This document shows, one piece after another, positions 3,205-45,955 of a stretch of 64,000 nucleotides of DNA. The translations under genes were made by a program, and so were the position numbers. The stretch comes from a virus (taxonomy: Duplodnaviria; Caudoviricetes): IMG/VR virus record IMGVR_UViG_3300012122_000001, positions 8,726 to 72,725 of that record. One strand, 5' to 3'. Position 1 is the first letter of the stretch. Each line of letters opens with the position of its first letter. The notes under the pieces were generated by a model, which did not search any database, was not told where the DNA came from, and was given only the letters and a program-made list of their open reading frames with translations.

Positions 3205-3233
3205 TTGACATAGGATTCACAGTAGAGCAAAAT
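3205..3233 (+). promoter_or_regulatory. sigma70-like promoter
   Basis: TTGACA-N17-CAAAAT in an AT-rich intergenic region. Confidence 0.65.
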
Positions 3234-3275
3234 GTTATTCGTAGATCGGCAGAGAAGCTCGTAGGAGCAGAATAG

Positions 3276-3303
3276 GCCGCGGCGAAAGTCGCGGCTTTTT
3301 TTT
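3276..3303 (+). terminator. intrinsic terminator / attenuator
   Basis: 8-bp stem GCCGCGGC-GAAA-GTCGCGGC followed by T8. Confidence 0.85.
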
Positions 3304-3324
3304 ATGGGCCGAGATGGGGAAGAG

Positions 3325-3495
3325 ATGACGACGGTGATCTGCCCGAAGTGCGGACGTTTCGCACTGAAGGGTAGGTTCCAGATCGTCGAGACCATCTGCA
3401 ACGACCGCGATTGTCGCGCGAACTTCGTTGTAGAGGTGCTCGCGGACGGATCGACCGCGATCCGGACTCTTCCCCGACAGAAGGTTAAGGCGTAG
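3325..3495 (+). CDS. Com-like zinc-ribbon protein (alternative start 3304)
   Basis: CPKC-x15-CNDRDC spacing resembling phage Mu Com-type Zn ribbons. Confidence 0.6.
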   Translation: MTTVICPKCGRFALKGRFQIVETICNDRDCRANFVVEVLADGSTAIRTLPRQKVKA

Positions 3496-3666
3496 GGTCC
3501 ACCAGGGCAGACGGACCGAGGCCGCGCAACGCGGAGTTGACCTCGAAATGGTCCGTTCGTCTCACAACGGCGCCGCGCTCCGCGCATCTCATTCCTTCGT
3601 TCCTTCTTCTTCCTTGGGGCCCCGCGTCTCCGCGCGGGGTTCCTTCAATTTTCTTCCGGTGCCTCG

Positions 3667-5208
3667 ATGAGCTCGACCGTCGAAGGGCTCGAGCGCGGAG
3701 TCATCGGCACGGACAAAACCATCCAGAGAATGCACCGTCTGGTCGCGCTGGGAAAGCTCGACCCGACGATCCAGAAGATCGCGACCTGGATCCGCCTGGG
3801 CGTGCCCAAGGACGTGCGCGCCTCGACGAAGCTCGCGGCCGACGCGATCTTCAACTGGGTTCAGAAGCACGGTCTCTTCCAGCGCGACCCGTTCCAGATC
3901 GAGAAGATCGAGCATCCTATCGAAGCGATGCGGCCGATCATCGAGGCGCGCAAGGCCGGGACGTACACCGGACCGGCGCTCTTCGTCGGCGACTGCGACA
4001 CGATGGCGGGCGTGTACACGGCGAGTTTGCTCGGCGTGCTCGGCTTCCAGTATTCCTTCGAAACCGCCAAGGTCGATCCGGATCGCCCCGACGAGTTCTC
4101 TCACGTCTGGGTCTCCGCGCGGATCGGGAACGAGTGGTACCCGCTCGACCCGTCGACGCGCGGGGCATATCCCGGCTGGCGTCCTCCGGTCAAGCCGGAG
4201 CAGTTCAAACGCTGGCCGGAGGGACCGATCGAAGACGTCGTGAAAGGGTCCGACATGAGCGCATTCAACAGCGGCATGGGGGATAACGGAGAAGACGAAG
4301 GCGGCGACGAGCCCGTCATCGAGAACAACGATTCCCCCCTCACCGGAGTCGACGCCGAGTACGCCCAGGACTACATCGGATACGGGATCCCCAGGGACTT
4401 CGGCAGCGGCCCAGGCGTGATCCCGCCCGGCAACTTCGAGAGCCTCCAGCTCCTTCCGCCGCACGACACGCAGATCCCGGCGGCCGACCTGGAGCGGGAC
4501 ATGCATCTGCTCAAGGCGGCGCCGCGCCTGGACCCGTCCGAACGGATCCAGAGCCTCGCCGGTCAGCCGAACGACCACGGCAACCCCTACTATCGCGGGG
4601 GTGGTCGCCAGCCCTACATCAAGGTCGAGCGCAAGATGTACCCGCCCGGCTCGCGCTGGAACGAGCCGTACGGCAAGGACACCATCCGCTACCAGAAAAC
4701 CGACAAGTACATTTCCGTCAAGAGTCCCGAAACACCCGAAAGACGAGTGGAGGTCAAGATGGACCAGCCGATGCTGATCCGCAGGAGAAACGTCATGACG
4801 CCCCCTCAGCGGATCCCGTTCGGCGCAATGGACGGCATGGGCGACATCGATCCCAATACCGGGATCATGACCTTCGGCTCGACGCCCGCGCCCACGGCGA
4901 CGCAGACGGCAGCGGCGACCGCCGGAACGTCCGTCTGGGATTCGATCCTGGGCGCATTCTCGTCCGTCGCGAAGGCCGCCGGAACGATCGTTCCGTCGGT
5001 GCTCCAGTCGAAGACCGCGCAGGCCGTCGCGAGCGCGACGAACCGTCTCGCGGGCTCGAACGTGCTGACGGCCGGGCAGCTCACCAACCCGACGCCCTGG
5101 TACAAGAACCCCGTCACGATCGGCCTGGGGCTCGCCACGCTCGGCGGCCTGGGCTACGTCGTCATCAAGATGCGCCCCGGCATGGGCGGCCGGAGGCGTC
5201 GCCGGTAG
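3667..5208 (+). CDS. transglutaminase-like (papain-fold Cys-His-Asp) enzyme with C-terminal membrane anchor; candidate maturation protease
   Basis: GDCD, SHVW and PLDPS triad motifs; C-terminal hydrophobic helix IGLGLATLGGLGYVVI plus RRRRR tail. Confidence 0.8.
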   Translation: MSSTVEGLERGVIGTDKTIQRMHRLVALGKLDPTIQKIATWIRLGVPKDVRASTKLAADAIFNWVQKHGLFQRDPFQIEKIEHPIEAMRPIIEARKAGTYTGPALFVGDCDTMAGVYTASLLGVLGFQYSFETAKVDPDRPDEFSHVWVSARIGNEWYPLDPSTRGAYPGWRPPVKPEQFKRWPEGPIEDVVKGSDMSAFNSGMGDNGEDEGGDEPVIENNDSPLTGVDAEYAQDYIGYGIPRDFGSGPGVIPPGNFESLQLLPPHDTQIPAADLERDMHLLKAAPRLDPSERIQSLAGQPNDHGNPYYRGGGRQPYIKVERKMYPPGSRWNEPYGKDTIRYQKTDKYISVKSPETPERRVEVKMDQPMLIRRRNVMTPPQRIPFGAMDGMGDIDPNTGIMTFGSTPAPTATQTAAATAGTSVWDSILGAFSSVAKAAGTIVPSVLQSKTAQAVASATNRLAGSNVLTAGQLTNPTPWYKNPVTIGLGLATLGGLGYVVIKMRPGMGGRRRRR

Positions 5209-5213
5209 GTTCG

Positions 5214-5495
5214 ATGCGCTACATCCGCTACGTCAAGAGACCCGGCATCGGAGATTCCGTCACCGACGGACTCACGACCGGCTTCACCGCTTCGGTCGCC
5301 GAGGCCCTGGAGCCGAAGATCCGGACCATCCTGAAGGAGGACATCCTTCCCATGGTGATGGTGGGTCTCGTCGCGGGCGCCGTAGCGGCGTCGGTCATCG
5401 GATCCTGGTTCGCTTCGCGCCCCTCGCGGTCCGGAGTCCGGTCGAACCCGGTCTCCAGGATCCACATCCCTCTGCGTCGCCGGAGGACCGCATGA
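5214..5495 (+). CDS. small membrane protein
   Basis: One hydrophobic helix, N-terminal GIGD motif, basic C-terminus with RSNP. Confidence 0.75.
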   Translation: MRYIRYVKRPGIGDSVTDGLTTGFTASVAEALEPKIRTILKEDILPMVMVGLVAGAVAASVIGSWFASRPSRSGVRSNPVSRIHIPLRRRRTA

Positions 5496-8400
5496 GCTAC
5501 CAGGATCTCAAGTCCAGGATGGTCGCGCACCTCAAGAAGTGGGCGCGTGGAATGGTTGATTCCGGCGAGGGCATGAACTTCAGCATCGAGTCGGCGATTT
5601 ACTGGTTCGCGAACGACTACCACAACGGCGGCGGAAGCGAGCTCTACCAGATCCTCTCGACCTCGAAATTTCGTCCCGGTCCGTCTCATCGGTCGGTCGA
5701 CGATGAAGGCGACGAGATCGACAAAATGATGTACGAGGAGCTGGAGCGGTACTTCATCCCAAAAGGAAGAGCGAGGAACAACGGTCACACGGGCGTTCGA
5801 AAGAACCCTCCGTCCTTCATCCTGATCGACAAAGAGACCGGACTCGTCGTGTACACGAAGCGGGCGACCGGCGTCGGCAGCGCAGCGATCTCGGCTTGCG
5901 TGAAGCGTGGTCACGAGCTCGCGGACCAGCACAACCGCGTCTACACCGTCTTCCTGGACATCCGCGGCCTCTCTCGTGGCATGAAGGTCCATGTCCCGGC
6001 GATCTATGCGCTCGGGATCACCGAAGAGATCCATCCGGGCGGTCAGTCCGTCCGTCCGAATTCTCGCGGCGCCGTACGGAAGAACATCTTCACCTTCAAC
6101 AATCCGAAGCTGAAGTTCAGCGATCTCTCGGTCGGCGAGACGTTCGTGTTCGCCTCCCAGGACGATCCCAAGTTCCTGACCAGCGGAATGGCGCGCGGTC
6201 CGTGGATCAAGCGCAGCGCCAGGACGTACGAACACGTCGACGACGTCGGCAAGCAGATCTCGGAGCGGAGGTACGGCGGCGGCCATATCGCCGTCGGAAG
6301 CGCCTCCGTCGGAGTGAAGCGCATGAGCCTCGGACGGGAACTGCCGAAGCTCTGCCCTCACTGCGACGCCTCGTATATCGGCACGCCCCAGATGCACAAG
6401 TTCGAGTGCGCTCCCCAGGGCGGAGCGAACCTGTACCAGGAGAACCCGCGCCGCAGATCCGCTCGTCGGAACCCCACGATGGGATCCTACGAGGTCTTCG
6501 TCGGGAACATCGGGCAGGTCTACGACGGGAACGATCGGGCGAAGGCGCAGCACTCCTTCGACTACTACGTCGCCATGTCGAAGCGTACCAGCGGTCGCGC
6601 GAGCGGCGAGGATGTCGCCCTCCTCTGTGAAGGCGAACTCAGCCAGGAGTACATCGGAAGCAAGGGACGCGAGCGCGGAGATCATCGGCGCGGCGTCCGC
6701 CGGAACATCTTCACCTTCAACAATCCTCCGTCCGGCCCGGCAGATCCGGCCGCGGCGCGCGAGCTCGAGGTCTACATCGAGAACGACGCCGACCTCTACC
6801 GGCAGCAGTTCGTCCCGATCGTGAAGAATCTGATGCTGAAGCGCCGGAAGGGCGTCTACAACCGCGAGCTGGCGGTCAAGCTCTTCATGTACCTGATGGA
6901 CGCGGGCGCGAAGAAGTACGTCGCCGAGTACGTCCGCTCGTCGTCGCCCGGCGCGCCGATGCCGAAGATCGACGGCACCTTCAACAAGAACACGCGCCTG
7001 ATGGCCGCGCGGTCCTTCCTGGAGTCCTTCGAAGGCGAGGCGGAGCTCGGGAACTACGACCGGATGATCGGTCCGGTCTCGAACCCTCGGGGGGCAAACG
7101 TGCGGAAGAATATCTTCACCTTCAACAACCCGAAGCAGCGTCCTCTGAACGAGATGGAGAACGCTGCCAGTCTGGTCGGCCTGACCGTCACGACCTGGGC
7201 GCCGGGCGACGGCGTGACGCGCTACCGCTTCTTCAAGGCAGGCGGAAGTCGGTACGCCGACTATCACCAGGGCGGCGCTCTCTACACGGCGCTCGGCCGG
7301 AAGGAAGCGATCGCGTTCATCAAGTCGTACGGCGTCGGCCGTAGCCGGATGAATCCGCTGAACCAGAAAGAAATCGAGCAGATGCGCGATCGCGAGAGGT
7401 TCTACGTCGGTCGCTCTCAGAAGTACGGTTCCGAGGGGAAGGAAGCGGATGCCGCTCACTTCCGAGGCGCCGCGCAGGAGAGTCGGAACATTCGCGAGCG
7501 TCACCATGCCAAGGGCACGGATTGGTGGCCGAATCCCCCTGTCTGCTCGAACCCGCTCGTCCGCGGCGACAAGCTTCCTCACAACCTCCGGATGGAAGTG
7601 CGGAATCGGTTCATCTACCGCTGGACGTCCGACAACGATCGTCGCGCCGAAGTCTACGGCCTCTGCCCGCACTGCAAGACGCGGGGCGGGAAGCCCTCCG
7701 AGACCAACATCGCTTGCCGTCAGGTCCACCCGACGATCCCGCTTCAGACGGACGAGCAGTGGCTCAAGACGCACGCCTTCCACGTCACGAAGGCGGGTCG
7801 TCTCAGCGAGCGGCATAACCATGCGGAGCCGGGCTACATGGCCGACGACGAGACCAGGAAGAATCCGATGTCGCGCCGCGAAGCCGCAGGAGAGATCCGG
7901 GAGATCCGCGGCGCGAGAAGCAAGATGCGCTACTTCCATCGGCTCGGCCGTCCGGAAGCTGCCGAGTTCCAGGACGGATACGCTCACGGAGTCGCAGGAG
8001 CGGTTTACCGCCGCGGTCCGAAGTCCGCGCGTCGTGTCGTCGATCGCGCGGTCCGCTCGAATCCGCTCCTCCAGACCGTGATGCTGGCGAATCCTGGATC
8101 GGTGAAGACTTTCAGCGAGATGCAGGACGTGGGCAAGGCGAAGTACGTTGTGAACTATCACGACGGAGTGAAGGTGCATCGCGACGGTAGCCCGTTTTTC
8201 GACATCGCCATTTTCAGCAATCGGGCTAAGAAAGATCAGTTCGTCAGGAAGTTGGAGAGCCTTGGATTTACTCGGGGCGCCCTTCGGAACCCGCCGATCT
8301 CCACGCAGTGGGATCGGATGACGCGCCGCCAGCGCGAGGCGCTCCTGGAGATCGTCGGCTACGATCGTGACTTCTCCGGCGGCATGACGCTGTCCACCTG

Positions 8401-9133
8401 GGGCGCGCTCTCTCCCGCCGCGAAGCGGAAGCTCGAGGCTCAGTGGCTCGACACGACGTCAAGCGGCGGAACGACGCGCCGTCGGCGCCGCTCGCCGGTC
8501 GCGGTGAATCCGCTGACCAGGAAAGAAGCCGCGTCGACGGTCAGAAGCGCAAAGTTCGACCTTCGATACGGGTCGGCGTTCGCGCCCGGACACACGCGAT
8601 CCGGCTCGGCCGGTCGCGCGTTCGGGAAGGCAACGGTCGTTCGTGACTTCGGCCCCAGGTCAGCCGGTCGGGCCGCGAGCAAGATCATGAAGCGTTCCGT
8701 CGACCTGACGCACGCCGTTCGTACGAACCCCGGCATCAAGTACCCGAAACCCGGCACGAAGATGACCGTCGCCCAGGCGATGGACCTCGCGCGCCGGATC
8801 GGCAACAAGGATCTGATCAAGCAGTGCGAGGAAGCCGCGAAGCTCCAGAAGGTCGCGAACCGCGGCGCGAAGGTCGTCATCTGGAAGGAGCTGCCGATCG
8901 GCTCGCCGAACAAGATCGACATGGTGACGGCCTTCGCCCATTACGGCGACTCTCCGGAGACGATGTACCGGCCGCCGAAGGGCTCGAAGAAGGGCCCGCA
9001 TATGTACCGCCACAAATGGGGCGAGGGAACCGGCAAGAAGAAGTCCGTGCCGATCCTGGCGGCGCCCGGCGGCAAAGCACTCATCACGCTGATGGGCAGC
9101 GACCAGAAGACCGGCGATTGGATGAGAGGCTAG
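5492..9133 (+). CDS. 1213-aa mosaic (polyvalent-like) protein with 16 NP motifs
   Basis: ATGA-coupled to the previous gene; unrelated ~50-100-aa modules separated by basic linkers ending in NP; R(K/R)NIFTFNNP occurs three times. Confidence 0.85.
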   Translation: MSYQDLKSRMVAHLKKWARGMVDSGEGMNFSIESAIYWFANDYHNGGGSELYQILSTSKFRPGPSHRSVDDEGDEIDKMMYEELERYFIPKGRARNNGHTGVRKNPPSFILIDKETGLVVYTKRATGVGSAAISACVKRGHELADQHNRVYTVFLDIRGLSRGMKVHVPAIYALGITEEIHPGGQSVRPNSRGAVRKNIFTFNNPKLKFSDLSVGETFVFASQDDPKFLTSGMARGPWIKRSARTYEHVDDVGKQISERRYGGGHIAVGSASVGVKRMSLGRELPKLCPHCDASYIGTPQMHKFECAPQGGANLYQENPRRRSARRNPTMGSYEVFVGNIGQVYDGNDRAKAQHSFDYYVAMSKRTSGRASGEDVALLCEGELSQEYIGSKGRERGDHRRGVRRNIFTFNNPPSGPADPAAARELEVYIENDADLYRQQFVPIVKNLMLKRRKGVYNRELAVKLFMYLMDAGAKKYVAEYVRSSSPGAPMPKIDGTFNKNTRLMAARSFLESFEGEAELGNYDRMIGPVSNPRGANVRKNIFTFNNPKQRPLNEMENAASLVGLTVTTWAPGDGVTRYRFFKAGGSRYADYHQGGALYTALGRKEAIAFIKSYGVGRSRMNPLNQKEIEQMRDRERFYVGRSQKYGSEGKEADAAHFRGAAQESRNIRERHHAKGTDWWPNPPVCSNPLVRGDKLPHNLRMEVRNRFIYRWTSDNDRRAEVYGLCPHCKTRGGKPSETNIACRQVHPTIPLQTDEQWLKTHAFHVTKAGRLSERHNHAEPGYMADDETRKNPMSRREAAGEIREIRGARSKMRYFHRLGRPEAAEFQDGYAHGVAGAVYRRGPKSARRVVDRAVRSNPLLQTVMLANPGSVKTFSEMQDVGKAKYVVNYHDGVKVHRDGSPFFDIAIFSNRAKKDQFVRKLESLGFTRGALRNPPISTQWDRMTRRQREALLEIVGYDRDFSGGMTLSTWGALSPAAKRKLEAQWLDTTSSGGTTRRRRRSPVAVNPLTRKEAASTVRSAKFDLRYGSAFAPGHTRSGSAGRAFGKATVVRDFGPRSAGRAASKIMKRSVDLTHAVRTNPGIKYPKPGTKMTVAQAMDLARRIGNKDLIKQCEEAAKLQKVANRGAKVVIWKELPIGSPNKIDMVTAFAHYGDSPETMYRPPKGSKKGPHMYRHKWGEGTGKKKSVPILAAPGGKALITLMGSDQKTGDWMRG
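6077..7132 (+). repeat. three ~30-bp direct repeats encoding R(K/R)NIFTFNNP
   Basis: Near-identical copies of cggaagaacatcttcaccttcaacaatcc at ~6077, ~6698 and ~7103. Confidence 0.9.
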
Positions 9134-9143
9134 GAGAATTCAC

Positions 9144-10262
9144 ATGATCGGAGCACTTGTATTTGCGAACCCCGGACGGCCTGTAGCCGCTCGGAGGAGA
9201 CGTTCGCGTTCCCGTACCGCCCGCACGACGGGCAGGAGAGTCAAGATGGCACGCACCCGTTCGCGCCGTCGCACCGGGCGGCGCATCCGGCGGAATGCCA
9301 AGGGGCATTTCGTCACCCGGCGCCGGTCGACCCGGCGTCGGCGTCGGAATCCCAGCGGCTTCATCAAGGTCGGCCGCCGCTGGAAGAAGATCACGAAGTA
9401 CGCCCGTCGGCGCCGTCGGGGCAGCCGGAAGGGCCAGATCCGGGCCTTCAAGTTCCCGAAGCGGTATCGGCGGAGCCGCCGGGTTCGTCGGAACCCCGTG
9501 GTCGTCGCCAACCCGCGTCGGAGCCGTAGCCGTCGGGCGCGGCGCAACCCGTATCGGCGTCATCGCCGGTACGTCCGTCGGAATCCCAGCGTCGCGTATC
9601 GGCTGACGTCGGATCCGGTCGCGGCGATCAAGTCGGCGATCATGTCCGCGTTCTCGATGGACACCGTCGAGACGCTGTTCCACATGGGCCTGGGCTTCGG
9701 CTCGTCCATCGTGGTCAGCCGGACGCTGATCAAGCAGTGGCTGCCGGTCCTCGGCGAGACCGCTCTCGGCCGGGTCGGCGGCACGTTCGGGACCGGCGTG
9801 GTCCTGACGGCGCTGTCGAGCTTCCTCAAGAACTCGAGCCTCACGGCCCGGTTCCTGACCGGCTCGCTGTTCGCCACCTTCTGGCAGGGCCTGTCCGAAG
9901 TCGTGTCGGCCTACCAGCCTCAGCTCAAGGAGTTCATCCCGACGCTGTCGGGCGCTCCGGAGACCGAGGAGTTCCGTCGCGCGATCGAGCGGGAAGTTCT
10001 CCGCGAGCTCAAGGGCGGCGTGAACGAATACCTGCCCGCGGCGGGCGCCGAGGGGTACTCGACGTACCTCCGCCCGGCCGGGATCGAGTACCTCCGTCCC
10101 GCCGGGACGGAAGCGTACCTCACCGAAGTGGGCGCGGAGCGCGCCCAGGGAGGCATGGGCGCCTTCCTGACCGACCGCGAGGTCAGTCGCGTCGAAGCCC
10201 GGCCCAGCGGGGTCGGCGAGGACGAGTTCGGCAGGGGCGACACCCTGCCGGAGCGGTTCTAG
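9144..10262 (+). CDS. Arg-rich (protamine-like) core/membrane protein
   Basis: First ~150 aa very Arg-rich with 6 NP motifs (mostly RRNP), then hydrophobic helices, then (E/T/A)YLxxxG repeats; directly upstream of the capsid gene. Confidence 0.8.
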   Translation: MIGALVFANPGRPVAARRRRSRSRTARTTGRRVKMARTRSRRRTGRRIRRNAKGHFVTRRRSTRRRRRNPSGFIKVGRRWKKITKYARRRRRGSRKGQIRAFKFPKRYRRSRRVRRNPVVVANPRRSRSRRARRNPYRRHRRYVRRNPSVAYRLTSDPVAAIKSAIMSAFSMDTVETLFHMGLGFGSSIVVSRTLIKQWLPVLGETALGRVGGTFGTGVVLTALSSFLKNSSLTARFLTGSLFATFWQGLSEVVSAYQPQLKEFIPTLSGAPETEEFRRAIEREVLRELKGGVNEYLPAAGAEGYSTYLRPAGIEYLRPAGTEAYLTEVGAERAQGGMGAFLTDREVSRVEARPSGVGEDEFGRGDTLPERF

Positions 10263-10277
10263 GCATCAATCAAGGAA

Positions 10278-10421
10278 GCCCTGGGAGGGAAACCTCCCAG
10301 GGCCTCCCCCAGGGCGGCCCAGTGCGGGCCTTCCTGGGGGAGTCGGGCAGGTAAGCACCAGCCCGTCCCGGTGGGATGTAGCAGCAGGCCGAGAGGCCGC
10401 TTGAGGTCATTGTGACCTCAA
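10278..10421 (+). other. structured intergenic leader upstream of the capsid gene
   Basis: Hairpins GCCCTGGGAGG-GAAA-CCTCCCAGGGC, CTCCCCCAGG...CCTGGGGGAG, GGCC-GAGA-GGCC and TTGAGGTCA-TTG-TGACCTCAA. Confidence 0.7.
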
Positions 10422-10457
10422 CCCGCAGAATGGTGCTTGATCAAGGAGATCGAGAGT

Positions 10458-11096
10458 ATGCCTCCTCCCATGGATGCGGGCGCGCCGATCCAGGTCGTGC
10501 AGCCCTACTACAAGATCGTGCAGGGCGTTCCTGCGGCGATCGTCCGGTCGTACAAGCAGCCCCTGTACGACTCGGAAGTGATCCTCTCCGCGTCCCCGAC
10601 GCGGGAGTTCACGCTGTACTCGAAGCCCGTCGGCCAGATGCTGAACGACGCGGCGACGACCAAGACGTTCGTCCACTCGAACCAGACGCAGGCCGGGTCG
10701 CTCGGCACGCCTCTGAGCTTCGACGTGTACGGCTTCAACAAGCGCGTCTGGGGCGGCGTCGCGACCAAGGTCATCACCATCGGCAACTCGACCCTGGTCG
10801 AGGCCGCGGGCGTGGCCGAGGTCATCTTCGGTCAGGACACGAAGTTCCTGACGATCCCGATCGAAGACGTGCCGTCCGGCGTGGACTACGAGGGCATGGG
10901 CGCGACCGATGCGCCGCACATCGGCCTCGGGCAGTCCGACAACCTGTACCGCTTCGACGTGGGCGGTCGGGCGCTGCACATCAACTCGACGGAGCCGTAT
11001 CAGGTCAAGATCTCCTGGCCGTCGAGCCTCTCCGGCATCACCGGCAACCTGCTGTTCCGGTGGTTCATGCGCGGAATCCTTTACAAGGGCGTCTAG
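10458..11096 (+). CDS. putative single jelly-roll major capsid protein
   Basis: AAGGAG SD supports the start at 10458. Beta-rich, with a PLYD...PVGQ...KT...N...G.LGTP.SF.V.G pattern and C-terminal YQVKISWP...MRGILYK strands, recalled from Thermus P23-77/IN93-type capsid proteins (not searched). Confidence 0.6.
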   Translation: MPPPMDAGAPIQVVQPYYKIVQGVPAAIVRSYKQPLYDSEVILSASPTREFTLYSKPVGQMLNDAATTKTFVHSNQTQAGSLGTPLSFDVYGFNKRVWGGVATKVITIGNSTLVEAAGVAEVIFGQDTKFLTIPIEDVPSGVDYEGMGATDAPHIGLGQSDNLYRFDVGGRALHINSTEPYQVKISWPSSLSGITGNLLFRWFMRGILYKGV

Positions 11097-11238: not shown

Positions 11239-12192
11239 ATGAGCTGGTCCCAGGTTCCGACATTCCTCCGCATCTCGGACAAGGATCCCGATCCCAAGAA
11301 GCGCGGGATCATCTACATGAACCCGGCGAAGGACTGGGTTCAGCCGTTCGAGCTGACGGTTTCGAAGCCGAACCAAGTCATCCGTCTCGCCGCGGGCGAG
11401 CAGCGCGGGCCCTTCCCGCTGACGGCGCAGTACGACGGCCCGATCGAGGTCTTCTACGTCAAGGCCAACGTCTACGAGGACGACGACGGGGAGCCCGGCG
11501 CCCTGGTGAACTCGTACGACATCGACGTGCTCCTGGAGCATCCGGGCAAGCGGATCCAGTTCATGAACCGCTTCGTCCCGCTCGACGCGATGTCCGGAAA
11601 CGCCGGGCTGCCGTACGTCCTGCCGGAGACGATCTTCATCCCGCCGGTCCAGTCGCTCAACCTGACGCTCGTCAACAACGATCTCGCCAACGCGCGGCAC
11701 GTCGAGTTCGTCCTGGGCGGCATCAAGTTCTACCCGAACATGGCGCCGTCCGAGATCCGCGGCGAGACCTGGAAGTACGTCGACCGCCGCGAGCGGACCT
11801 ACGCCTACCTCATGACCACCGACGAGGAAGCCGTCGTCGCCGCCTCGGCCACCACGCCCTTCTTCATGACGATCCCCGACAACGCGGATCTCGAGGTCTT
11901 CAAGCTGACGGCCAAGGCGACCGCCGCCTTCCGCTGCCGCGTGCGCGACGGTCAGAACGACCGCGCCCTCACCGGAGACCTCGTCCACTCGGCGCTGCTC
12001 TTCGGCGGCCACCAGCCGCTCTCGGGCAACGCTGCGGTCACCGGATCCGGCGGTCTCTTCCCGGCACGCTGGGCGACCTCGTGGCTCATCCGGCGGTCGA
12101 CGAAGGTCCAGCTCGATCTCCAGGACATCAGCGCCGCGGAGAACGAGATCAAGGTCATCTTCGGAGGCAGAAAGATCAGCTATGTCAGCTAA
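11239..12192 (+). CDS. putative double jelly-roll capsid protein
   Basis: Visible internal duplication: the halves end in VEFVLGGIKFY and IKVIFGGRKISY, each preceded by G...P...LP/W...I...L.L.N/D; all-beta pattern. Confidence 0.6.
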   Translation: MSWSQVPTFLRISDKDPDPKKRGIIYMNPAKDWVQPFELTVSKPNQVIRLAAGEQRGPFPLTAQYDGPIEVFYVKANVYEDDDGEPGALVNSYDIDVLLEHPGKRIQFMNRFVPLDAMSGNAGLPYVLPETIFIPPVQSLNLTLVNNDLANARHVEFVLGGIKFYPNMAPSEIRGETWKYVDRRERTYAYLMTTDEEAVVAASATTPFFMTIPDNADLEVFKLTAKATAAFRCRVRDGQNDRALTGDLVHSALLFGGHQPLSGNAAVTGSGGLFPARWATSWLIRRSTKVQLDLQDISAAENEIKVIFGGRKISYVS

Positions 12193-12892
12193 AAATCCGC
12201 CTCGCCCTCCTCGGCGCCCCAGGCGCGGAGGAATGGGCGATGACCAGTACTTCTACGAGGGATGGCGCGACGCAGGCCAGGGGGAACCCAGGCCGATGGA
12301 CGTCGTGTCCGATCCCAACTGCCCGCCGCCCAAGGAAGCGCAGCAGTGCGGGAAGGTCAAGCTCAACTGGGTGAAGTTCCCGGCCTTCAACCAGCCGCCG
12401 TTCTTCGCCAAGCCGCTCATCAAGGCCCGGTCGTCGCTCGTGATCCCGGCCGGGGACATCGCGCTCATCTTCGACCGCGAGATCGCCGATCGCCAGCGTG
12501 CGATCGTCTCTCTCGTCGGGATCGACGTCGCGCCGATCGCGCCGCTCCTGAACTCGCAGCTTGAGTTCTGGTTCCAACTCGGCCGCCAGGGCGTTCCCGA
12601 AGTTTCGAAGAACGTCATTCCGGTCTGGGACGACCAGAATCCGACCGGCTACGGCGGGTCGACCCCGATCCAGTCCGGCCGGACGACCGTGTGGCCCGGT
12701 GTCGCGACCCCGGAGGAGTTCTTCAAGAACGGCCTCCAGTTCGGCGTACGCGGCCGGGGCCAGCTCCAGGGACTCATCGAGAACAAGTCCGCCGTCGACG
12801 TCACGGTCCGCGGGATCCTGGGTTACTACTACTACTGGTCCAGCGGCCCTGGTGGTGCCTCGGAGTTCGAGGCCGGAGATTTCCAGGCGTAG
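12182..12892 (+). CDS. putative penton / minor jelly-roll protein with basic leader
   Basis: Leader MSAKNPPRPPRRPRRGGMGD, then a beta-rich domain ending VDVTVRGILGYYYYW. Confidence 0.5.
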   Translation: MSAKNPPRPPRRPRRGGMGDDQYFYEGWRDAGQGEPRPMDVVSDPNCPPPKEAQQCGKVKLNWVKFPAFNQPPFFAKPLIKARSSLVIPAGDIALIFDREIADRQRAIVSLVGIDVAPIAPLLNSQLEFWFQLGRQGVPEVSKNVIPVWDDQNPTGYGGSTPIQSGRTTVWPGVATPEEFFKNGLQFGVRGRGQLQGLIENKSAVDVTVRGILGYYYYWSSGPGGASEFEAGDFQA

Positions 12893-13645: not shown

Positions 13646-14859
13646 GCAGGCAGAGAAGCTCGATTGAATGGCAGGATATCGTCGCGGCGACATTTGTCGT
13701 CGGGAAGGATCTCGTCGAGTGCGACTACCTGACCCACCAGGAGGCGATCGACAATCTCCCGGTATCGGGCGGCGGCGTCTACACACTGCCTGGGACATAC
13801 TCCCAGGCGGTCACGATCACGATGCCTGACAAGGACGTCACGTTCGAGTTTGCGTCGGGCGTGACCATGTCGATCGGCTCGACCGTCATCGCGCTCTTCA
13901 CGGTTCCGGACGGCCTCACGGATAGGCGTACCTACTGCTTCTATGGTCTTACGGCCACCGCTGGAGATGTTGCCGATCAGACCTTCATGGAGCTGGCGGA
14001 GACGAACGCGCAGGGCATCGTGAAGTTCTACAACTGCACGATGACCGGCTGGAACGTCATCTTCGACGTCTCCGCTTCCGATCTCGACTACATCTTCCCG
14101 GTCGATATGTACCTCTACGGGTGCCGTCTCGAGGCTGCGGTCGGCCTGGGCGACAACACCATCGTCAAGACTGTGGCGGCAGCGGGAGCCTTTACGAGCG
14201 GCGTCGTGCTGTGGGCGCAGGACACGATGCTCAACACGGAGCAGGCCAGCGTTGCTGTCTGGAGCAGCTTCAATTACGGCTTCGACCTGATTTCTGACGG
14301 AACCGTCTATGCTCTTTTCCAGGGCCCGTGCAAGCTCGACGGCCTTCAGGGGCCGCTCCTCCTGTACGGCTCCGGCGTCTTCGGGATGTGGGCACTCGAA
14401 ATATTCGGGGGAAACTACTGGGCGCGATCTGAGTGGATTGGCGGCGCGCTTTCTTATGGTGCGCTCACCATTTCGACCTCGATCTATCAGTTTGACAACA
14501 ACCTTCAGCAGGCTGGCACCATTATCGTCAATGCCCCCTACTGCAAAATCAACGTCAGGTACTCGGACCTTGGAGGCTCACCTCCTGCGGTCGAGGTCGA
14601 CCTTCTTTCCACCGCGCATCGTTGTGTGATTTCTGGAAACTTCGGAGATAACACTACCGCTGCGGTCCGCGTTGCCAGCGTCTACAACAGGTTCATCGGA
14701 TGTCTCTTCGAGTCGTCGGGCGCCCACGGGACGATCGTGGAGACCGGTGCCGCCGACAACAACATCGGCGTCGGCTGCGCGGGACTCTCCAGTGGCGGCG
14801 GGATGACGATCATCGGCGCCGGTTCGGTGTTCGACCTGACCCTTGCTAACCTTCCGTAG
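13642..14859 (+). CDS. beta-helix-like receptor-binding/spike protein
   Basis: Repeating short beta-strand/turn pattern (FYNCT, LYGCR, FIGCL); more A/T-ending codons than flanking genes. Confidence 0.5.
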   Translation: MSRQRSSIEWQDIVAATFVVGKDLVECDYLTHQEAIDNLPVSGGGVYTLPGTYSQAVTITMPDKDVTFEFASGVTMSIGSTVIALFTVPDGLTDRRTYCFYGLTATAGDVADQTFMELAETNAQGIVKFYNCTMTGWNVIFDVSASDLDYIFPVDMYLYGCRLEAAVGLGDNTIVKTVAAAGAFTSGVVLWAQDTMLNTEQASVAVWSSFNYGFDLISDGTVYALFQGPCKLDGLQGPLLLYGSGVFGMWALEIFGGNYWARSEWIGGALSYGALTISTSIYQFDNNLQQAGTIIVNAPYCKINVRYSDLGGSPPAVEVDLLSTAHRCVISGNFGDNTTAAVRVASVYNRFIGCLFESSGAHGTIVETGAADNNIGVGCAGLSSGGGMTIIGAGSVFDLTLANLP

Positions 14860-14867
14860 GAGGAGCT

Positions 14868-15176
14868 GTGGCTGAGATCATCTGCAACGTCTGCCAGCTC
14901 CCGATCAAAGACCCGGCGGAGCAGATCGACCGCCTCTACGTCATCACCGCGAACAAGATGAGGCCTCTCCCGGCGCAGAAGAAGCACGACGCCTGCGCGG
15001 AGGTGTACGAGCGCAAGCGTGGACTCCAGCGTCGGTACCTCAAGACCGGTGAGTCGAAGCTCCCGGAGCTTGTCAAGACGCCTCCGGTGAGGCGCACGCC
15101 GCAGGAGAAGACCGCTGATGCTGCCGCCCTGGAGGCGGTCATCGCGCAGCAGCAGGCCGCCGCGAAACTGAGGTAG
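14868..15176 (+). CDS. small Zn-binding protein Z2
   Basis: CNVC...HDAC motif. Confidence 0.6.
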   Translation: MAEIICNVCQLPIKDPAEQIDRLYVITANKMRPLPAQKKHDACAEVYERKRGLQRRYLKTGESKLPELVKTPPVRRTPQEKTADAAALEAVIAQQQAAAKLR

Positions 15177-18836: not shown

Positions 18837-20900
18837 ATGGGACTCTTCGCTGGTCCTGGTCCGATCCAGGTAAAGTCCTTCATAACCAATCCCCCGACCT
18901 ACGGTATCGCGCAGATCGGCGTTGCCAAAAACTTTGCCGGATTTATTGCCGTCAACAGTCACTCGAGCTACTTGGTCGATCCCGACAGTCAGGCAACCTA
19001 CGGGTTCGAGCCCATGACCACCGGCTCGATGGTCATCACGTTCTTCCGGATGTACGGGTCCGCGGGGCAGATCACGCTGACGTACTCGACGTCGCCCGGA
19101 CCCGCGACGCCTCTGGGCGCGAATCCGGGCGTCGACTATACCGCCGTCTCCGGAACGCTGGTCTGGACCGATGGGGACATCGCTCCGAAGACCGTATCGA
19201 TTCCCCTGCTTCCGACTGCCTACACCATCGGGTTCCCGAACAACTTCTTCTACTTCAACATCGACAGCGTCGTGGTCGCCGCTCCGAACCCGACCGTCTA
19301 CGTCTACATGGGCGGAAACGACTTCAACGGCGGGAATCTGGAACCGTTCCCGAGCGGACTCTACGCCACGAGTTACACGTTCCCGGCCCTCATCATCAAG
19401 CGGACGGTCGGGAGCGCCTACTTCGTTGGATCTCCGTATTCCGTCCAGCGTCCAGGCGGGACGACGACCGTGACGCTCCAGGTCGTTCGGGCCGACAACG
19501 CCGGAGGGTTCAAGGGGGCGGTTCAGGTCAGCTACCACACCACGGACGGGACCGCCATCGCCGGTGTCGCCTATACCACAAAGACAGGGACGATCTCCTG
19601 GGCCGACGGCGTCGGTGGCGCACAACCGATCACGATCACGATCCTGAACGGCGGAGCCGGAACGCAGAGCTTCACCGTCACGATCGACAACCCCACGAAC
19701 GGCCTCACGATCATCGTCACCCCGACGGCCACCGTGAACATCACGGCCGGTGCGCCTCCGGCGAACCCGACCTCGTCCGGAGCTATCCCCAATCAGGTGG
19801 TGGATCTCGAGACGTTTGCCGACCCAAATGGACACACGCAGACCGTCCCTAACCCAATCCTCGTCCAAGACTCCTTGAGCTACTACAACCGCAACTTCCT
19901 GATCAACTCCTACGCGACGACCGGGATCCGACCGGACCTCAACGCCGTCTTCTTCATCAGCACGACGGTCGGATGGTTCGTCGGGGATGGCGGCATGATC
20001 TTCAAGACCACCGATGCCGGTGTCACCTGGGTGCAGCAGACGAGCACGGTAGTCGTGGAGCTCGAGGACGTCTTCTTCGCCGATGCGAACAACGGATGGG
20101 CGGTCGGCGCCGACGGGACGATCCTCGTCACGACGAACGGCGGAACGGTCTGGACGGCTCAGACGAGCGGCGTCGCCACGAGGCTGAACGCCGTCGGCTT
20201 CATCAGCAGTACGAACGGCTGGGCCGTCGGGGACGGCGGCGTGATCCGCGTCACCACGAACGGCGGCGGAACGTGGTCCCTCCAGGCAAGCGGCGTCGTC
20301 ACGGACCTGAACGACGTCTACTTCGTGGATGGCACCCACGGCTGGGCCGTCGGGGACGGCGGCGTGATCCTCTTCTACAACGGCACGACCTGGGCGGCTC
20401 AGACGAGCGGAACGCTGGTCAACCTGAACGGCGTGACCTTTACGAGTGCGACCAGCGGATGGGCCGTCGGAGACGACGGGGTCATCCTCTTCTGGAACGG
20501 CACGATTTGGGCGGCCCAGGTGAGCGGAGTCTCGACACAGATCGATCTCCGTGAGGTCGATTTTGCCAGCGCGACCGTCGGATGGGCCGTTGGGACGAAC
20601 GGCACGATTCTCGCTACCACGAACGGCGGGTCCACCTGGACTCCGCAGACCAGCGGAACGACGAACGACCTCAACGGTCTCGCCGCGGCCAGCACCTCGA
20701 TCGCCTGGGCGGTCGGTGACAACGGCACCATCCTCACAACGGCGAATGGCGGGACGACCTGGACTCCACAGGCAGCGCCGCTCCCCATTGGATCGAGCGG
20801 CGGAAACGGTGGAAGCTTCGGCGGCGGCGACGACTTCGCCAACTACGACCAGGGATTCTCGCAGAGCGGATTCCTGAAGTTCCAGGGAGCTATTTACTAA
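18837..20900 (+). CDS. adhesin: two Calx-beta-like domains plus a 7-bladed YCF48/BNR-type beta-propeller
   Basis: DYTAVSGTLVWTDGD and AYTTKTGTISWADG Calx-beta patterns; seven L..V.F.....GWAVG..G.I....NGG.TW..Q repeats (~19935-20775). Confidence 0.8.
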   Translation: MGLFAGPGPIQVKSFITNPPTYGIAQIGVAKNFAGFIAVNSHSSYLVDPDSQATYGFEPMTTGSMVITFFRMYGSAGQITLTYSTSPGPATPLGANPGVDYTAVSGTLVWTDGDIAPKTVSIPLLPTAYTIGFPNNFFYFNIDSVVVAAPNPTVYVYMGGNDFNGGNLEPFPSGLYATSYTFPALIIKRTVGSAYFVGSPYSVQRPGGTTTVTLQVVRADNAGGFKGAVQVSYHTTDGTAIAGVAYTTKTGTISWADGVGGAQPITITILNGGAGTQSFTVTIDNPTNGLTIIVTPTATVNITAGAPPANPTSSGAIPNQVVDLETFADPNGHTQTVPNPILVQDSLSYYNRNFLINSYATTGIRPDLNAVFFISTTVGWFVGDGGMIFKTTDAGVTWVQQTSTVVVELEDVFFADANNGWAVGADGTILVTTNGGTVWTAQTSGVATRLNAVGFISSTNGWAVGDGGVIRVTTNGGGTWSLQASGVVTDLNDVYFVDGTHGWAVGDGGVILFYNGTTWAAQTSGTLVNLNGVTFTSATSGWAVGDDGVILFWNGTIWAAQVSGVSTQIDLREVDFASATVGWAVGTNGTILATTNGGSTWTPQTSGTTNDLNGLAAASTSIAWAVGDNGTILTTANGGTTWTPQAAPLPIGSSGGNGGSFGGGDDFANYDQGFSQSGFLKFQGAIY

Positions 20901-31563: not shown

Positions 31564-32898
31564 ATGTCCCGCATTCTCTACGAGCGCAGGATCGAAGGCG
31601 GCACGCTGAGTCTGGTGGAGTCGAATCCCCCAGGCGAGACGGAGATCGTCGTCCGCTTCGACGATCCGGACGGCGGGCCCGCCTTCAAGGCGCTCGCGAA
31701 GTTCCCGCCGGAGGCCAGGGAGATCGCGAAGTTCAAGCTGAAGCACGCCCGCGGCCGACTCGACGTCGAGGATCTCCTGCGTGAGTGGAGCGACCACGAG
31801 ACCTGGGCGCTCTGGCAGGAGTGGTGGGCGGGCCTCAAGGCGCCTGTCAAGACCCGCCTCCTGGGCGAAGGGAAGGTCGAGCGCAAGGAGAACACGAGCG
31901 AGCTCCTGCCGTTCGACGAGTACGACGCGATCGTCGTCAGCTTCTCCGGCGGCAAGGACTCCATGGCCTGCCTGCTCGACCTGATCGAGAGAGGCGCCCC
32001 CAGGGACAAGATCGAGCTCTGGCACCAGTCGGTCGACGGCAGACCCGGCGTCGACGGCCGGTTCTTCGACTGGCCCTGCACGGAGAGCTACTGCAAGGCG
32101 ATCGCCAAGGCTCTTGGCGTCCCGATCTACTTCCAGTGGCGTGAGGAAGGCTTCGAAGGCGAGATCACGAAGGTGAACCGGACCACGCTGCCGGTCGGCT
32201 TCGAGCTCGAACCGGGCGGCCTCGAGCACGGCGCCGTCGGGAAGGCCGGAGGCGGCGGCACGGTCGGGACTCGCCTGAAGTTCCCGAACCCCGTCGCCAA
32301 CCTGATGACCCGCTGGTGCTCCAGCCTCCTCAAGATCGACGTCGCAAACCTCGCGCTCAACAACACGGAACGCTTCAAGTCCGGCAAGTTCCTCTTCGTG
32401 ACCGGCGAACGGCGCGAGGAGAGCTCGAACCGGGCCGGATACGCGGAGATCCTCGAGCACCGGTCGACTTCGAAGAAGCGCCGCGTTGACCACTGGCGCT
32501 CGATCCTGGACTGGATGGAGCCGGACGTCTGGGGGATCATCAAGCGGTTCAGAATCCGACCGCATCCGGCCTACTACCTGGGCTGGGGCCGCGTGAGCTG
32601 CTTCCCCTGCATCTTCGGATCCCCGAACCAGTGGGCCAGCGTCAAGGCCGTCGATCCGAAGCAGTTCAAGGCGATCCTGGGCTACGAGCACCAGTTCGGC
32701 TACACGGTCCAGGCCGGTGGCGACATTGCCTTCCAGGCCAACCGCGGGAAGAGCTTCGTGCCGAACGATCCGGAGAATCTCGCGCTCGCCATGAGCGAAG
32801 AGTTTCCGGAGCCCCTGGCGCTCGTCCCTGCCGGTCAGTGGAAGCTGCCCCAGGGGGCCATGGGGAAGATCGCAGGATCCGGCGGCGGGCCGCTGTAG
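31564..32898 (+). CDS. PAPS-reductase/PP-loop family protein (DndC-like superfamily)
   Basis: VVSFSGGKDS PP-loop, RWCSSLLK, TGERREES..RA and GRVSCFPC motifs; ~110-aa N-terminal extension. Confidence 0.85.
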   Translation: MSRILYERRIEGGTLSLVESNPPGETEIVVRFDDPDGGPAFKALAKFPPEAREIAKFKLKHARGRLDVEDLLREWSDHETWALWQEWWAGLKAPVKTRLLGEGKVERKENTSELLPFDEYDAIVVSFSGGKDSMACLLDLIERGAPRDKIELWHQSVDGRPGVDGRFFDWPCTESYCKAIAKALGVPIYFQWREEGFEGEITKVNRTTLPVGFELEPGGLEHGAVGKAGGGGTVGTRLKFPNPVANLMTRWCSSLLKIDVANLALNNTERFKSGKFLFVTGERREESSNRAGYAEILEHRSTSKKRRVDHWRSILDWMEPDVWGIIKRFRIRPHPAYYLGWGRVSCFPCIFGSPNQWASVKAVDPKQFKAILGYEHQFGYTVQAGGDIAFQANRGKSFVPNDPENLALAMSEEFPEPLALVPAGQWKLPQGAMGKIAGSGGGPL

Positions 32899-39716: not shown

Positions 39717-40193
39717 TTAGAACCCTCCCTCGGACAGCTCCGCGCAGATGGGACCGATGCCGTTGCGGATCGACGCGGGCGTCGTGAGCGGCCGGTTGCA
39801 CCGGCAGCAGGCGCCCTCCATGAGGATCGTGAACCCCTTGTCGGACCAGGGCGAGAAGGCGCCGTCCAGGGCGAGCGACCAGAGCAGGTCGGCGAACTGG
39901 ATCCAGCGGTGGCCGTCGGAGCCGGGTCGGGCGCCGGGCATGGCCTTCGACGCCCAGACGCGGATCCCGCCGTTGTCGACGAAGGCGAAGCCGGTGTAGC
40001 AGGACGGATCGTCGTTCTGGGAGCCGGTGAGCAGGTAGACCACCCGCTTGCCGGGGGCGAACTCTGCGTCCTGGGGCTGGGTCCGGACCCAGAAGGTCCG
40101 GTGCTCGCCGGTCTGCTTGGACTCGATCGTGTAGCGCCCGTTGAAGAGCTTCACGGTCGGGGCGGGGCGCGCGTCGGGTTCGGTCGCCATCAT
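39717..40193 (-). CDS. DUF6011-like protein
   Basis: C-terminal CCRCNRPLTTPASIRNGIGPIC motif. Confidence 0.7.
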   Translation of the reverse strand: MMATEPDARPAPTVKLFNGRYTIESKQTGEHRTFWVRTQPQDAEFAPGKRVVYLLTGSQNDDPSCYTGFAFVDNGGIRVWASKAMPGARPGSDGHRWIQFADLLWSLALDGAFSPWSDKGFTILMEGACCRCNRPLTTPASIRNGIGPICAELSEGGF

Positions 40194-40228
40194 CGTATCC
40201 TCCTTCCTCGAAGTCGTCGTATACACGT

Positions 40229-40813
40229 TCACTTCGCCAGCTCGAAGTCTGCCTCGCAGAGGCCGCAGGAGATCGGGCCCTGCTCGAAGAGCTTCGCGGA
40301 TCCGCGGATGATCCTGGGGGTCTCGCACTCGCAGACCGCCTTGAGCTGCCGGTTCTTCTGCGTGTGCAGGATGACGAGGTGGCCGCCGGGCCACTTCGGG
40401 AGCCGCTTGAGCCAGCCCGTGATCTTCTTCTTGAGCTCTTCGCCCGCGGTGGTCGCGGTCCAGGGCTTCTCCAGGCCGACGCGCTTCGCGAGCTGGGAGA
40501 ACTTCGCCCGGTGTCCGCACCCCATCGGGAGGGCCGCGTGGACCATCTCGTGGACCAGCACCTCGACGAGGTCGAACGGCTCGCGGAGCGTGGGCGAGAT
40601 CAGGATGACGCGGTCGCCCTCGACCTTGACGGCCGACCCGCCCTTGTAGTGGCACTCCCCGATCGTCCGGCGGCTGGACTTCGTGCCGCCCTTCGAGGGG
40701 AAGCTCCAGGAGATCGCCACGGTCGCGGGCGCCTGGGGGAGCAGTTCCTTCCGGATCAGGGCGTAGGCGGCCCGCAGCCACGCCTCCCGGTTGACCTTGG
40801 TGACCGGCTTCAT
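40229..40813 (-). CDS. SprT-like metalloprotease
   Basis: VLVHEMVH, GH...F...A..VGL and a C-terminal Zn ribbon (CEC...CGLC); AAGGAG SD at start 40813. Confidence 0.8.
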   Translation of the reverse strand: MKPVTKVNREAWLRAAYALIRKELLPQAPATVAISWSFPSKGGTKSSRRTIGECHYKGGSAVKVEGDRVILISPTLREPFDLVEVLVHEMVHAALPMGCGHRAKFSQLAKRVGLEKPWTATTAGEELKKKITGWLKRLPKWPGGHLVILHTQKNRQLKAVCECETPRIIRGSAKLFEQGPISCGLCEADFELAK

Positions 40814-45929: not shown

Positions 45930-45955
45930 CCCCGTCTCCTTCTTCTTCCTTCTTC

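Follow-up and report, generated by a model that had tools for sequence, protein, structure and literature searches.

A membrane-anchored transglutaminase-fold enzyme in the virion module of an uncultured tailless phage, a candidate maturation protease

Can a bacterial virus with a jelly-roll capsid mature by proteolysis? The question is raised by a gene at positions 3667..5208 (+ strand) of a 64,000-nucleotide stretch of viral DNA, which we refer to as the window. The window covers bases 8726-72725 of the IMG/VR record IMGVR_UViG_3300012122_000001, which is 72,725 bp long, has 123-bp direct terminal repeats and is rated complete. The source virus is an uncultured tailless phage, and the jelly-roll fold of its capsid genes is putative. 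Proteolytic maturation is, to our knowledge, not known from the well-studied bacterial jelly-roll viruses (PRD1, PM2, and Bam35). According to the current model, a maturation protease entered the jelly-roll lineage only in eukaryotes, from a transposon (PMC6260650). The gene encodes a 513-aa protein (P0001) with a transglutaminase-fold enzyme, a disordered linker, and a C-terminal membrane anchor, and an initial annotation made from the DNA letters alone had put it forward as a candidate maturation protease. The open reading frame (ORF) is indeed open throughout, and every feature named in it lies where it had been placed. From comparisons of sequences and predicted structures, we propose tentatively, with a probability of roughly 0.4, that P0001 is a LapG-like cysteine endoprotease tethered to the virion membrane, with G-[L/M]-G-acidic sites in virion proteins and in its own chain as its targets.

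The catalytic domain comprises residues 1-190 (3667..4236, + strand) and consists of three N-terminal helices followed by the transglutaminase core. An AF2 model of residues 1-200 had a mean predicted local distance difference test (pLDDT) score of 92.2. In the model, C110 of the sequence GDCD (residues 108-111, nt 3988-3999, + strand) starts helix 110-124, H146 of SHVW (residues 145-148, nt 4099-4110, + strand) starts strand 146-153, and D161 of LDPS (residues 160-163, nt 4144-4155, + strand) comes after strand 156-160. This is the arrangement by which the transglutaminase-like superfamily is recognized: the order is Cys-His-Asp, the Cys is at the N-terminus of a helix, and the His and Asp are on the following strands. 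D109, C110, H146 (4102..4104, + strand), and D161 (4147..4149, + strand) were invariant in 105 aligned homologs and D111 was conserved in at least 90% of them, so the intact Cys-His-Asp triad that had been read from the gene is confirmed.

Structural matches of the domain were consistent with this arrangement. With VIA-align, the best match was 3kd4 (BDI_1141 of Parabacteroides distasonis; Z 13.6, with the N-terminal helices included), followed by PNGase (10.3), factor XIII (10.3), 3isr (10.1), TG2/TG3 (9.8-9.9), PeiP (9.5), LapG (9.3), and PeiW (8.8), and TglA was also among the neighbors. The top Foldseek matches all had the transglutaminase fold, and no clan CE structure was found among the 50 structural matches listed. 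Of 75 distant homologs, 71 matched PF01841 (Transglut_core, clan Peptidase_CA), the best of them at E 7.7e-16. The best sequence-profile match was 3isr of Cytophaga hutchinsonii, a 'putative cysteine protease' of the transglutaminase-like type, which was found in the PDB with the family profile (E 3e-5) and in which Cys, His, and Asp align. Both 3kd4 and 3isr are cellular, structural-genomics 'putative proteases' with other accessory domains, and they are uninformative on function. Pfam and PHROGs scans of P0001 and nine neighboring proteins gave no match at E<=0.01, and a phmmer search of PDB sequences with the whole of P0001 gave none. Because the structure model, its neighbors, the profile matches, and the invariant residues agree, the transglutaminase-like fold and the intact active site are secure.

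The sole feature we saw that points to one chemistry, that of a calcium-dependent endoprotease, over the superfamily at large is D109-C110-D111 (3991..3999, + strand), in which the catalytic Cys lies between two acidic residues in a pattern like the calcium site of LapG. An Asp precedes the catalytic Cys in 200 of 204 homologs and follows it in 198 of 204, and in a profile alignment 'GDCED' of LapG aligns with the family consensus 'GDCDD'. In DvhG, a protease of the LapG family (BTLCP; PF06035; MEROPS C93) that has been characterized by experiment, D316 and E318 flank C317 and form a calcium site needed for activity (PMC13090378). The pattern is D-C-E in DvhG and D-C-D here, and by analogy with LapG the enzyme is probably dependent on calcium. 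LapG and DvhG, which have the Cys-His-Asp triad on the same fold, are sequence-specific endoproteases; they release a surface protein by cleaving a tether at [T/A/P]AAG, a motif of small residues (PMC13090378). For P0001, we infer protease chemistry over other acyl transfer.

P0001 also differs from LapG in several respects. LapG is secreted to the periplasm, has a signal peptide, and is under the control of LapD and c-di-GMP, whereas P0001 has a C-terminal anchor and lacks an N-terminal hydrophobic segment; no hydrophobic h-region was visible by inspection in its N-terminus, which is polar (MSSTVEGLERG...). No LapD-like domain was found in the predicted proteins of the genome, and the candidate motif here is G-hydrophobic-G-acidic, not [T/A/P]AAG. 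Neither PF06035 nor the NCBIfam LapG model matched P0001's own sequence. Among the 75 homologs, two matched PF06035 (best E 0.0011) and two matched NF045674 (E 1.7e-4), all weakly. As judged by hidden Markov models, the enzyme family is a new viral branch of the transglutaminase-like superfamily that lies outside PF06035/LapG.

If P0001 is a protease, its own linker holds candidate sites. In the full-length model, only residues 1-190 and helix 482-501 (pLDDT ~83) were confident. Residues 200-445 were mostly below a pLDDT of 50, and ~290 mostly disordered residues separate the catalytic domain from the anchor. The first GMGD motif (residues 203-206; 4273..4284, + strand) lies directly past the catalytic domain and is a candidate self-release site or pseudo-substrate, while the second (residues 390-393; 4834..4845, + strand) comes before a Thr/Ala-rich stretch (residues ~400-425) and the anchor. 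Both motifs are in segments with a pLDDT below 50. G205 of motif 1 and G392 of motif 2 are each conserved in at least 90% of homologs, and motif 2 is conserved in orthologs. The anchor is a predicted transmembrane (TM) helix (residues 482-501; 5110..5169, + strand), which is preceded by a conserved PWYxxP aromatic belt and followed by the poly-Arg tail RRRRR (residues 509-513; 5191..5205, + strand). The two motifs, the Thr/Ala-rich region, the TM helix, and the poly-Arg tail of the initial annotation are thus all present.

This plan is widely kept. Among the 163 homologs that have more than 60 residues after the catalytic Asp, 122 (75%) have G-[LMIVF]-G no more than 90 residues past that Asp (median 40, interquartile range 34-42), 133 have a C-terminal hydrophobic helix, and 137 have a basic tail. 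An equivalent of motif 1 is also found in gp34 of the cultured phage SSIP-1 and in the eight distant relatives from IMG/VR (loci L011-L018). A search of the ESM Atlas with the C-terminal half (residues 207-513) gave no informative match, all scores being below 0.9 and TM below 0.3. Two database proteins of 166 and 181 aa contain only the C-terminal part, and they were considered as possible products of a fission at the motif. Because they begin at an internal Met upstream of motif 2, they are not evidence of fission, and they look like truncated gene calls.

The motif of the linker recurs in the virion block of the genome. Motif counts were compared with expectation, using 1000 shuffles for this virus's own genome. 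The virion block has 10 G-[LMIVF]-G-[DE] sites against 2.1 expected, a number reached by 0/1000 shuffles, and the rest of the genome has one site against 2.1 expected. In the virion blocks of three related complete genomes, the observed and expected numbers were 6/1.4, 3/1.5, and 5/1.2, and the other genes of these genomes were at expectation. Seven distant loci together had 10 sites against ~3.0 expected. Two of the sites in this virus are in the enzyme itself, and two are in the C-terminal part of a 372-aa protein.

Two further sites mark candidate substrates. The gene next to that of the enzyme (5214..5495, + strand) encodes a 93-aa small membrane protein, the basic N-terminal leader of which ends in GIGD at residues 11-14, and R-R-P-G-[LMIF]-G-D is kept in 7/7 orthologs. 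A 236-aa capsid-module protein (12182..12892, + strand) has a basic Pro/Arg-rich N-terminal arm that ends in GGMGD at residues 16-20. The arm is variable in length, G-G-[ML]-G is kept in 7/8 orthologs, and conservation begins right after the motif. In a related genome (G002), the leader M-x-R-Y-V-R-R-P-G-L-G heads two different proteins, one of which is 433 aa long (3280-4581). As the leader of this 433-aa protein is almost identical to that of the 93-aa protein, it looks like a portable module. In alignments of orthologs, the motif is retained amid variable surroundings. On the basis of these alignments and counts, the motif is real as a short linear element that is conserved in virion-module proteins, where it lies in disordered segments, and it may be a cutting site.

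Several observations weigh against the protease that we propose. The fold alone cannot tell a protease from an isopeptidase, a transglutaminase, an amidase, or a deamidase, and the first 200 residues of P0001 scored only 17.9 bits (E 0.004) with PF01841, the gathering cut-off of which is 23 bits. This genome was itself the source of the post hoc motif definition, and its close relatives do not count as independent. Individually, 4 of the 7 distant loci had no motif enrichment, and the late proteins of SSIP-1 had the four-residue motif twice against 1.6 expected, which is no excess. Without the acidic residue, G-[LMIVF]-G is weakly enriched (30 against 21.3 expected; reached by 36/1000 shuffles), and no enrichment was found for N-proximal G-hydrophobic-G in the virion modules. 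Moreover, the constant spacing of G-[LMIVF]-G after the catalytic domain could reflect a structural hinge, and it is just as conceivable that the linker motif masks the active site as a pseudo-substrate. The lean towards the protease of the initial annotation comes from the D-C-D active-site motif and from the motif common to the linker and the virion-module proteins; the motif statistics are partly post hoc, and looser forms of the motif show no enrichment.

In the mechanism we propose, the C-terminal TM helix and the poly-Arg tail would hold the enzyme in the internal membrane of the phage. With a tether of ~290 disordered residues, the catalytic domain could reach proteins located between this membrane and the shell, where it may itself lie, with the poly-Arg tail facing the DNA. 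The enzyme would cut at short G-[L/M]-G-(acidic) motifs, and small membrane proteins as well as proteins associated with the capsid would thereby lose basic N-terminal leaders or C-terminal pieces. Further cuts in the enzyme's own linker, at residues 203-206 and 390-393, would release the catalytic domain. Alternatively, where the linker is a pseudo-substrate, the cut in the linker would unmask the catalytic domain.

The initial annotation had likened such an enzyme to the proteases of eukaryotic jelly-roll viruses. Adenain (C5) of adenoviruses, pS273R (C63) of ASFV, and I7 (C57) of poxviruses are virion-packaged cysteine proteases that trim several core or membrane-proximal proteins at short Gly-containing motifs. 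There might be a functional likeness, that of a virion cysteine protease trimming proteins in a large jelly-roll virus. However, these proteases have a Ulp1-like clan CE fold with the order His-Asp/Glu(Asn)-Cys, and P0001 has the transglutaminase fold with the order Cys-His-Asp. The motifs also differ, being (M/I/L)XGG-X, GG-X, and AG-X in the three proteases and G-hydrophobic-G-acidic here. Because the fold and the catalytic order differ, the enzymes are unrelated and the likeness is one of analogy only.

The composition of the motif bears on another possibility, namely that P0001 is a true transglutaminase or acyltransferase, which would stabilize a large T=49-type shell by Gln-Lys isopeptide cross-links between virion proteins or by joining proteins to lipid or to each other through transpeptidation. 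Factor XIII, TG2, and TG3 rank high among the structural matches (Z 9.8-10.3), and several virion proteins end in a TM helix and a poly-Arg tail, which is superficially like a sortase-type sorting signal. However, Gln and Lys are both absent from the conserved motif, and D-C-D is the pattern of the LapG proteases. In animal transglutaminases and factor XIII, which use Gln/Lys substrates, the core is flanked by a beta-sandwich and beta-barrels. These accessory domains are absent from P0001, which in the model has only the core, the disordered linker, and the TM helix. Most prokaryotic members of the transglutaminase superfamily are held to be hydrolases, which also speaks against an acyltransferase. 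We regard a cross-linking role as very improbable.

A second short sequence is abundant near the enzyme gene. Asn-Pro is over-represented in a 1213-aa protein (window 5492-9133; 16 against 2.8 expected) and in the 372-aa protein (window 9144-10262; 6 against 0.4 expected). It mostly follows basic residues, and R-K-N-I-F-T-F-N-N-P occurs three times. P0001 might be a protease with other targets, which would cut the 1213-aa protein as a cargo polyprotein at basic-x-N-P seams, or would cut host proteins once delivered, and the G-[LM]-G sequences would then be unrelated hinges. The enzyme gene is two genes upstream of the polyprotein gene in one tight array, and many papain-fold effectors are among the weaker structural neighbors of the catalytic domain. 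Release by dedicated peptidases has also been proposed for polyvalent phage proteins (PMC5512222). However, the peptidases of polyvalent proteins are embedded zincins and not separate transglutaminase-fold enzymes. The distant relatives of ~35 kb keep the enzyme, while no NP-seamed giant protein was seen in the flanks, where no systematic search was made. In addition, Xaa-Pro bonds are poor substrates for papain-fold proteases. Targets of this kind appear improbable to us.

The location of the enzyme was judged from SSIP-1, which is a cultured, tailless, membrane-containing T=49 phage of Salisaeta (PMC6356626, PMC6260650). Among viral structures, the P0001 domain best matched I1ZBG7 (E 4e-9), which at 304 aa has the length of SSIP-1 gp34. 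In its record, gp34 is annotated as a structural protein with no function assigned, and it matched PF01841 with 29.6 bits, above the cut-off. Similar to P0001, gp34 has an ADCD…DHV…LDP domain followed by RARGMGE and a linker, and its C-terminal TM helix leads to a basic end. Its gene is likewise in a late/structural gene block and is followed by genes for small membrane proteins, with gp36 having GMGD at residue 17. The two proteins differ in that they are only 24.5% identical over the catalytic domain and 304 and 513 aa long, and gp34 has neither the second motif nor the poly-Arg tail. No other similarity was detectable between the SSIP-1 genome and this genome. The annotation of gp34 supports the place that P0001 had been given in the virion module. 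Because it is drawn from a distant relative of the same architecture, an association of the enzyme with the virion or its membrane in this virus is presumptive.

An enzyme anchored in the virion membrane could also act on the cell wall. PRD1 P7 is a membrane-associated lytic transglycosylase that is held to open peptidoglycan at entry. P0001 might be an entry enzyme as well, namely a cell-wall endo- or isopeptidase that is anchored in the virion membrane and opens the peptidoglycan as the internal membrane meets the host envelope. Its fold is common to PeiW and PeiP of methanogen phages (MEROPS C71; Z 8.8 and 9.5), which are phage-encoded transglutaminase-fold Cys-His-Asp hydrolases, and to psiM2 Pei (BFVD), and the record annotation places its SSIP-1 homolog in virions. 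The 79 proteins predicted from this genome include no endolysin or other peptidoglycan hydrolase and no holin-type family that Pfam recognizes, and none matches a lysozyme, amidase, transglycosylase, CHAP, or NlpC/P60 family. P0001 itself matches no SLT, lysozyme, amidase, CHAP/NlpC-P60, or M23 family, the wall-degrading domains by which virion peptidoglycan hydrolases of the PRD1 P7 type are recognized, but with the fold of the Pei endoisopeptidases it may nonetheless have wall-peptidase activity. As this virus has no other recognizable lysin, a role as a wall peptidase is a serious rival.

The comparison with SSIP-1 bears on this role on both sides. SSIP-1 gp54 (39770-40363) is annotated as a hypothetical protein; it has an AYNAG-type motif and a TM helix at its C-terminus, and its match to Pfam SLT is weak (E 0.0054, below the cut-off). 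From these features it is probably a membrane-anchored lytic transglycosylase of the PRD1 P7 kind, and the plan of P0001, an enzyme with a C-terminal TM helix, resembles it. However, SSIP-1 gp31 is a GH108 endolysin. Since SSIP-1 already has this endolysin and the probable anchored SLT gp54, gp34 is not required as a wall enzyme there. No homologs of gp31 or gp54 were found in this genome.

Other evidence speaks against an entry enzyme. The Pei enzymes have N-terminal wall-binding repeats and are lysins of archaeal hosts, whereas P0001 has no wall-binding module and its gene is accompanied by bacterial-type signals. The C-terminal half of P0001 is always joined to the transglutaminase domain (45/45 matches; length window searched 282-898 aa) and never to another lytic domain. 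D-C-D points to LapG-type proteases, which act on proteins, and an entry enzyme leaves the conserved G-[LM]-G in the linker and its enrichment in the virion module without explanation. We consider a role in entry less probable, and we continue to favor the virion-membrane-tethered endoprotease.

An exhaustive search found 943 cluster representatives of the enzyme at E<=0.001, and the weaker of the listed matches were nearly all to the catalytic domain only. No PHROGs family was found for any of the 75 homologs. With so many cluster representatives and no entry in PHROGs, the family deserves annotation whichever reading holds. The close homologs (n=113) are largely on contigs of 64-75 kb. Among 50,697 GenBank phage records, SSIP-1 was the only clear relative. 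A search for relatives that was based on the capsid genes returned the same genomes plus one, and a scan of genome contigs found one contig of a metagenome-assembled genome (Thermoanaerobaculia, 14.4 kb). We found no literature on transglutaminase-fold enzymes in jelly-roll or membrane-containing phages.

The relatives in IMG/VR comprise seven syntenic and eight distant ones. The eight distant relatives are on contigs of ~33-60 kb and are 27-31% identical over the domain, and they retain the full plan, in which a basic stretch bearing G-[LM]-G follows the domain and a linker leads to a C-terminal TM helix with a basic tail. In five of them (L013, L014, L015, L017, and L018), matches to the capsid-module genes of this virus lie several kb downstream, as they do here; the matches are clear in L013 (E 5e-22 and 6e-29) and weak in the other four (E 2e-4 to 4e-3). 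Stand-alone catalytic domains of ~170-190 aa also occur in the family. For example, at positions 8926-10908 of the 59.8-kb relative L013, a 171-aa transglutaminase ORF overlaps, in another frame, a 497-aa ORF with GMG motifs and a C-terminal TM helix. This arrangement is either a true gene split or a frameshift. The virion proteins that neighbor this separate domain still carry the motif. At the end of the 33-kb locus L014, a partial 226-aa ORF is 64% identical to residues 37-258 of a 642-aa protein of this virus with a HerA/DUF87 ATPase domain, which far exceeds the 29% identity of the enzyme domain in the same locus. The high identity of the HerA/DUF87 ORF suggests a recent exchange or a strong constraint.

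The gene layout roughly bears out the place at the head of the virion operon that the initial annotation had assigned to the enzyme. With a gene call guided by GC content at third codon positions (GC3), 79 genes were predicted in the whole genome. A + strand block extends from window position 874 to ~33150, and the - strand holds the replication and glycosyltransferase genes. The enzyme gene is the fourth of the + strand block, although it is the first to follow two terminator-like hairpins (3274-3297 and 3616-3643), and a tight array starts with it. In this array, the genes for the enzyme and the 93-aa, 1213-aa, and 372-aa proteins are separated by gaps of -4 to +10 nt, and the putative capsid genes are next. 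Besides its leader, the 93-aa protein has a TM helix in the middle and an RSNP motif, and it ends in an RRRR tail.

In order, the sequence before the enzyme gene holds a promoter-like TTGACA-17-CAAAAT (3205-3233), a strong hairpin that resembles a terminator and has a T8 run (3274-3297), and a 63-aa ORF (3304-3495) with the spacing CPKC…CNDRDC and the look of a zinc ribbon. Between this ORF and the enzyme gene are ~170 nt of GC-rich hairpins. The last of these is a terminator-like hairpin with a 12-bp stem (3616-3643, + strand), which is 23 nt before the start codon and marks the start of a new transcription unit. No obvious Shine-Dalgarno sequence was found before the ATG of the enzyme gene (3667). 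The regulatory signals, which include a sigma-70-like promoter and intrinsic terminators, are bacterial in type.

No other peptidase family was detectable among the 79 predicted proteins, and no tRNA genes were found in the window. A profile search of the PDB with the putative double jelly-roll protein gave no match. The virion block encodes a 687-aa protein (window 18837-20900) with PSII_BNR (BNR/Asp-box, E 8e-24) and Calx-beta (E 1e-14) matches, which could be a spike or receptor-binding protein. The gene for the 642-aa HerA/DUF87 ATPase-domain protein (window 44109-46037, - strand) is on the strand opposite to the virion block. A PAPS-reductase-domain protein is encoded both here (window 31564-32898) and in SSIP-1 (14166-15014), and no similarity between the two was detectable by BLAST.

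At the level of the family, we put forward with slightly less confidence than for P0001 itself that these enzymes may be calcium-dependent, membrane-tethered maturation proteases that trim basic leaders off virion proteins at G-[L/M]-G-acidic sites and release themselves there. They would serve a large and widespread group of jelly-roll phages with membranes, mostly uncultured and with SSIP-1 as its sole isolate, and proteolytic maturation would have arisen in prokaryotic viruses independently of the clan CE proteases of adenoviruses, poxviruses, and ASFV. A direct test is feasible, as SSIP-1 is cultured and the predicted sites are explicit. Should the enzyme prove to be a wall peptidase instead, membrane-containing phages would have a new type of entry enzyme in the virion. 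If the protease reading is true, it would give SSIP-1 gp34 a function, and a maturation protease would add a proteolytic step to the prokaryotic jelly-roll viruses, reached by convergence on another fold.

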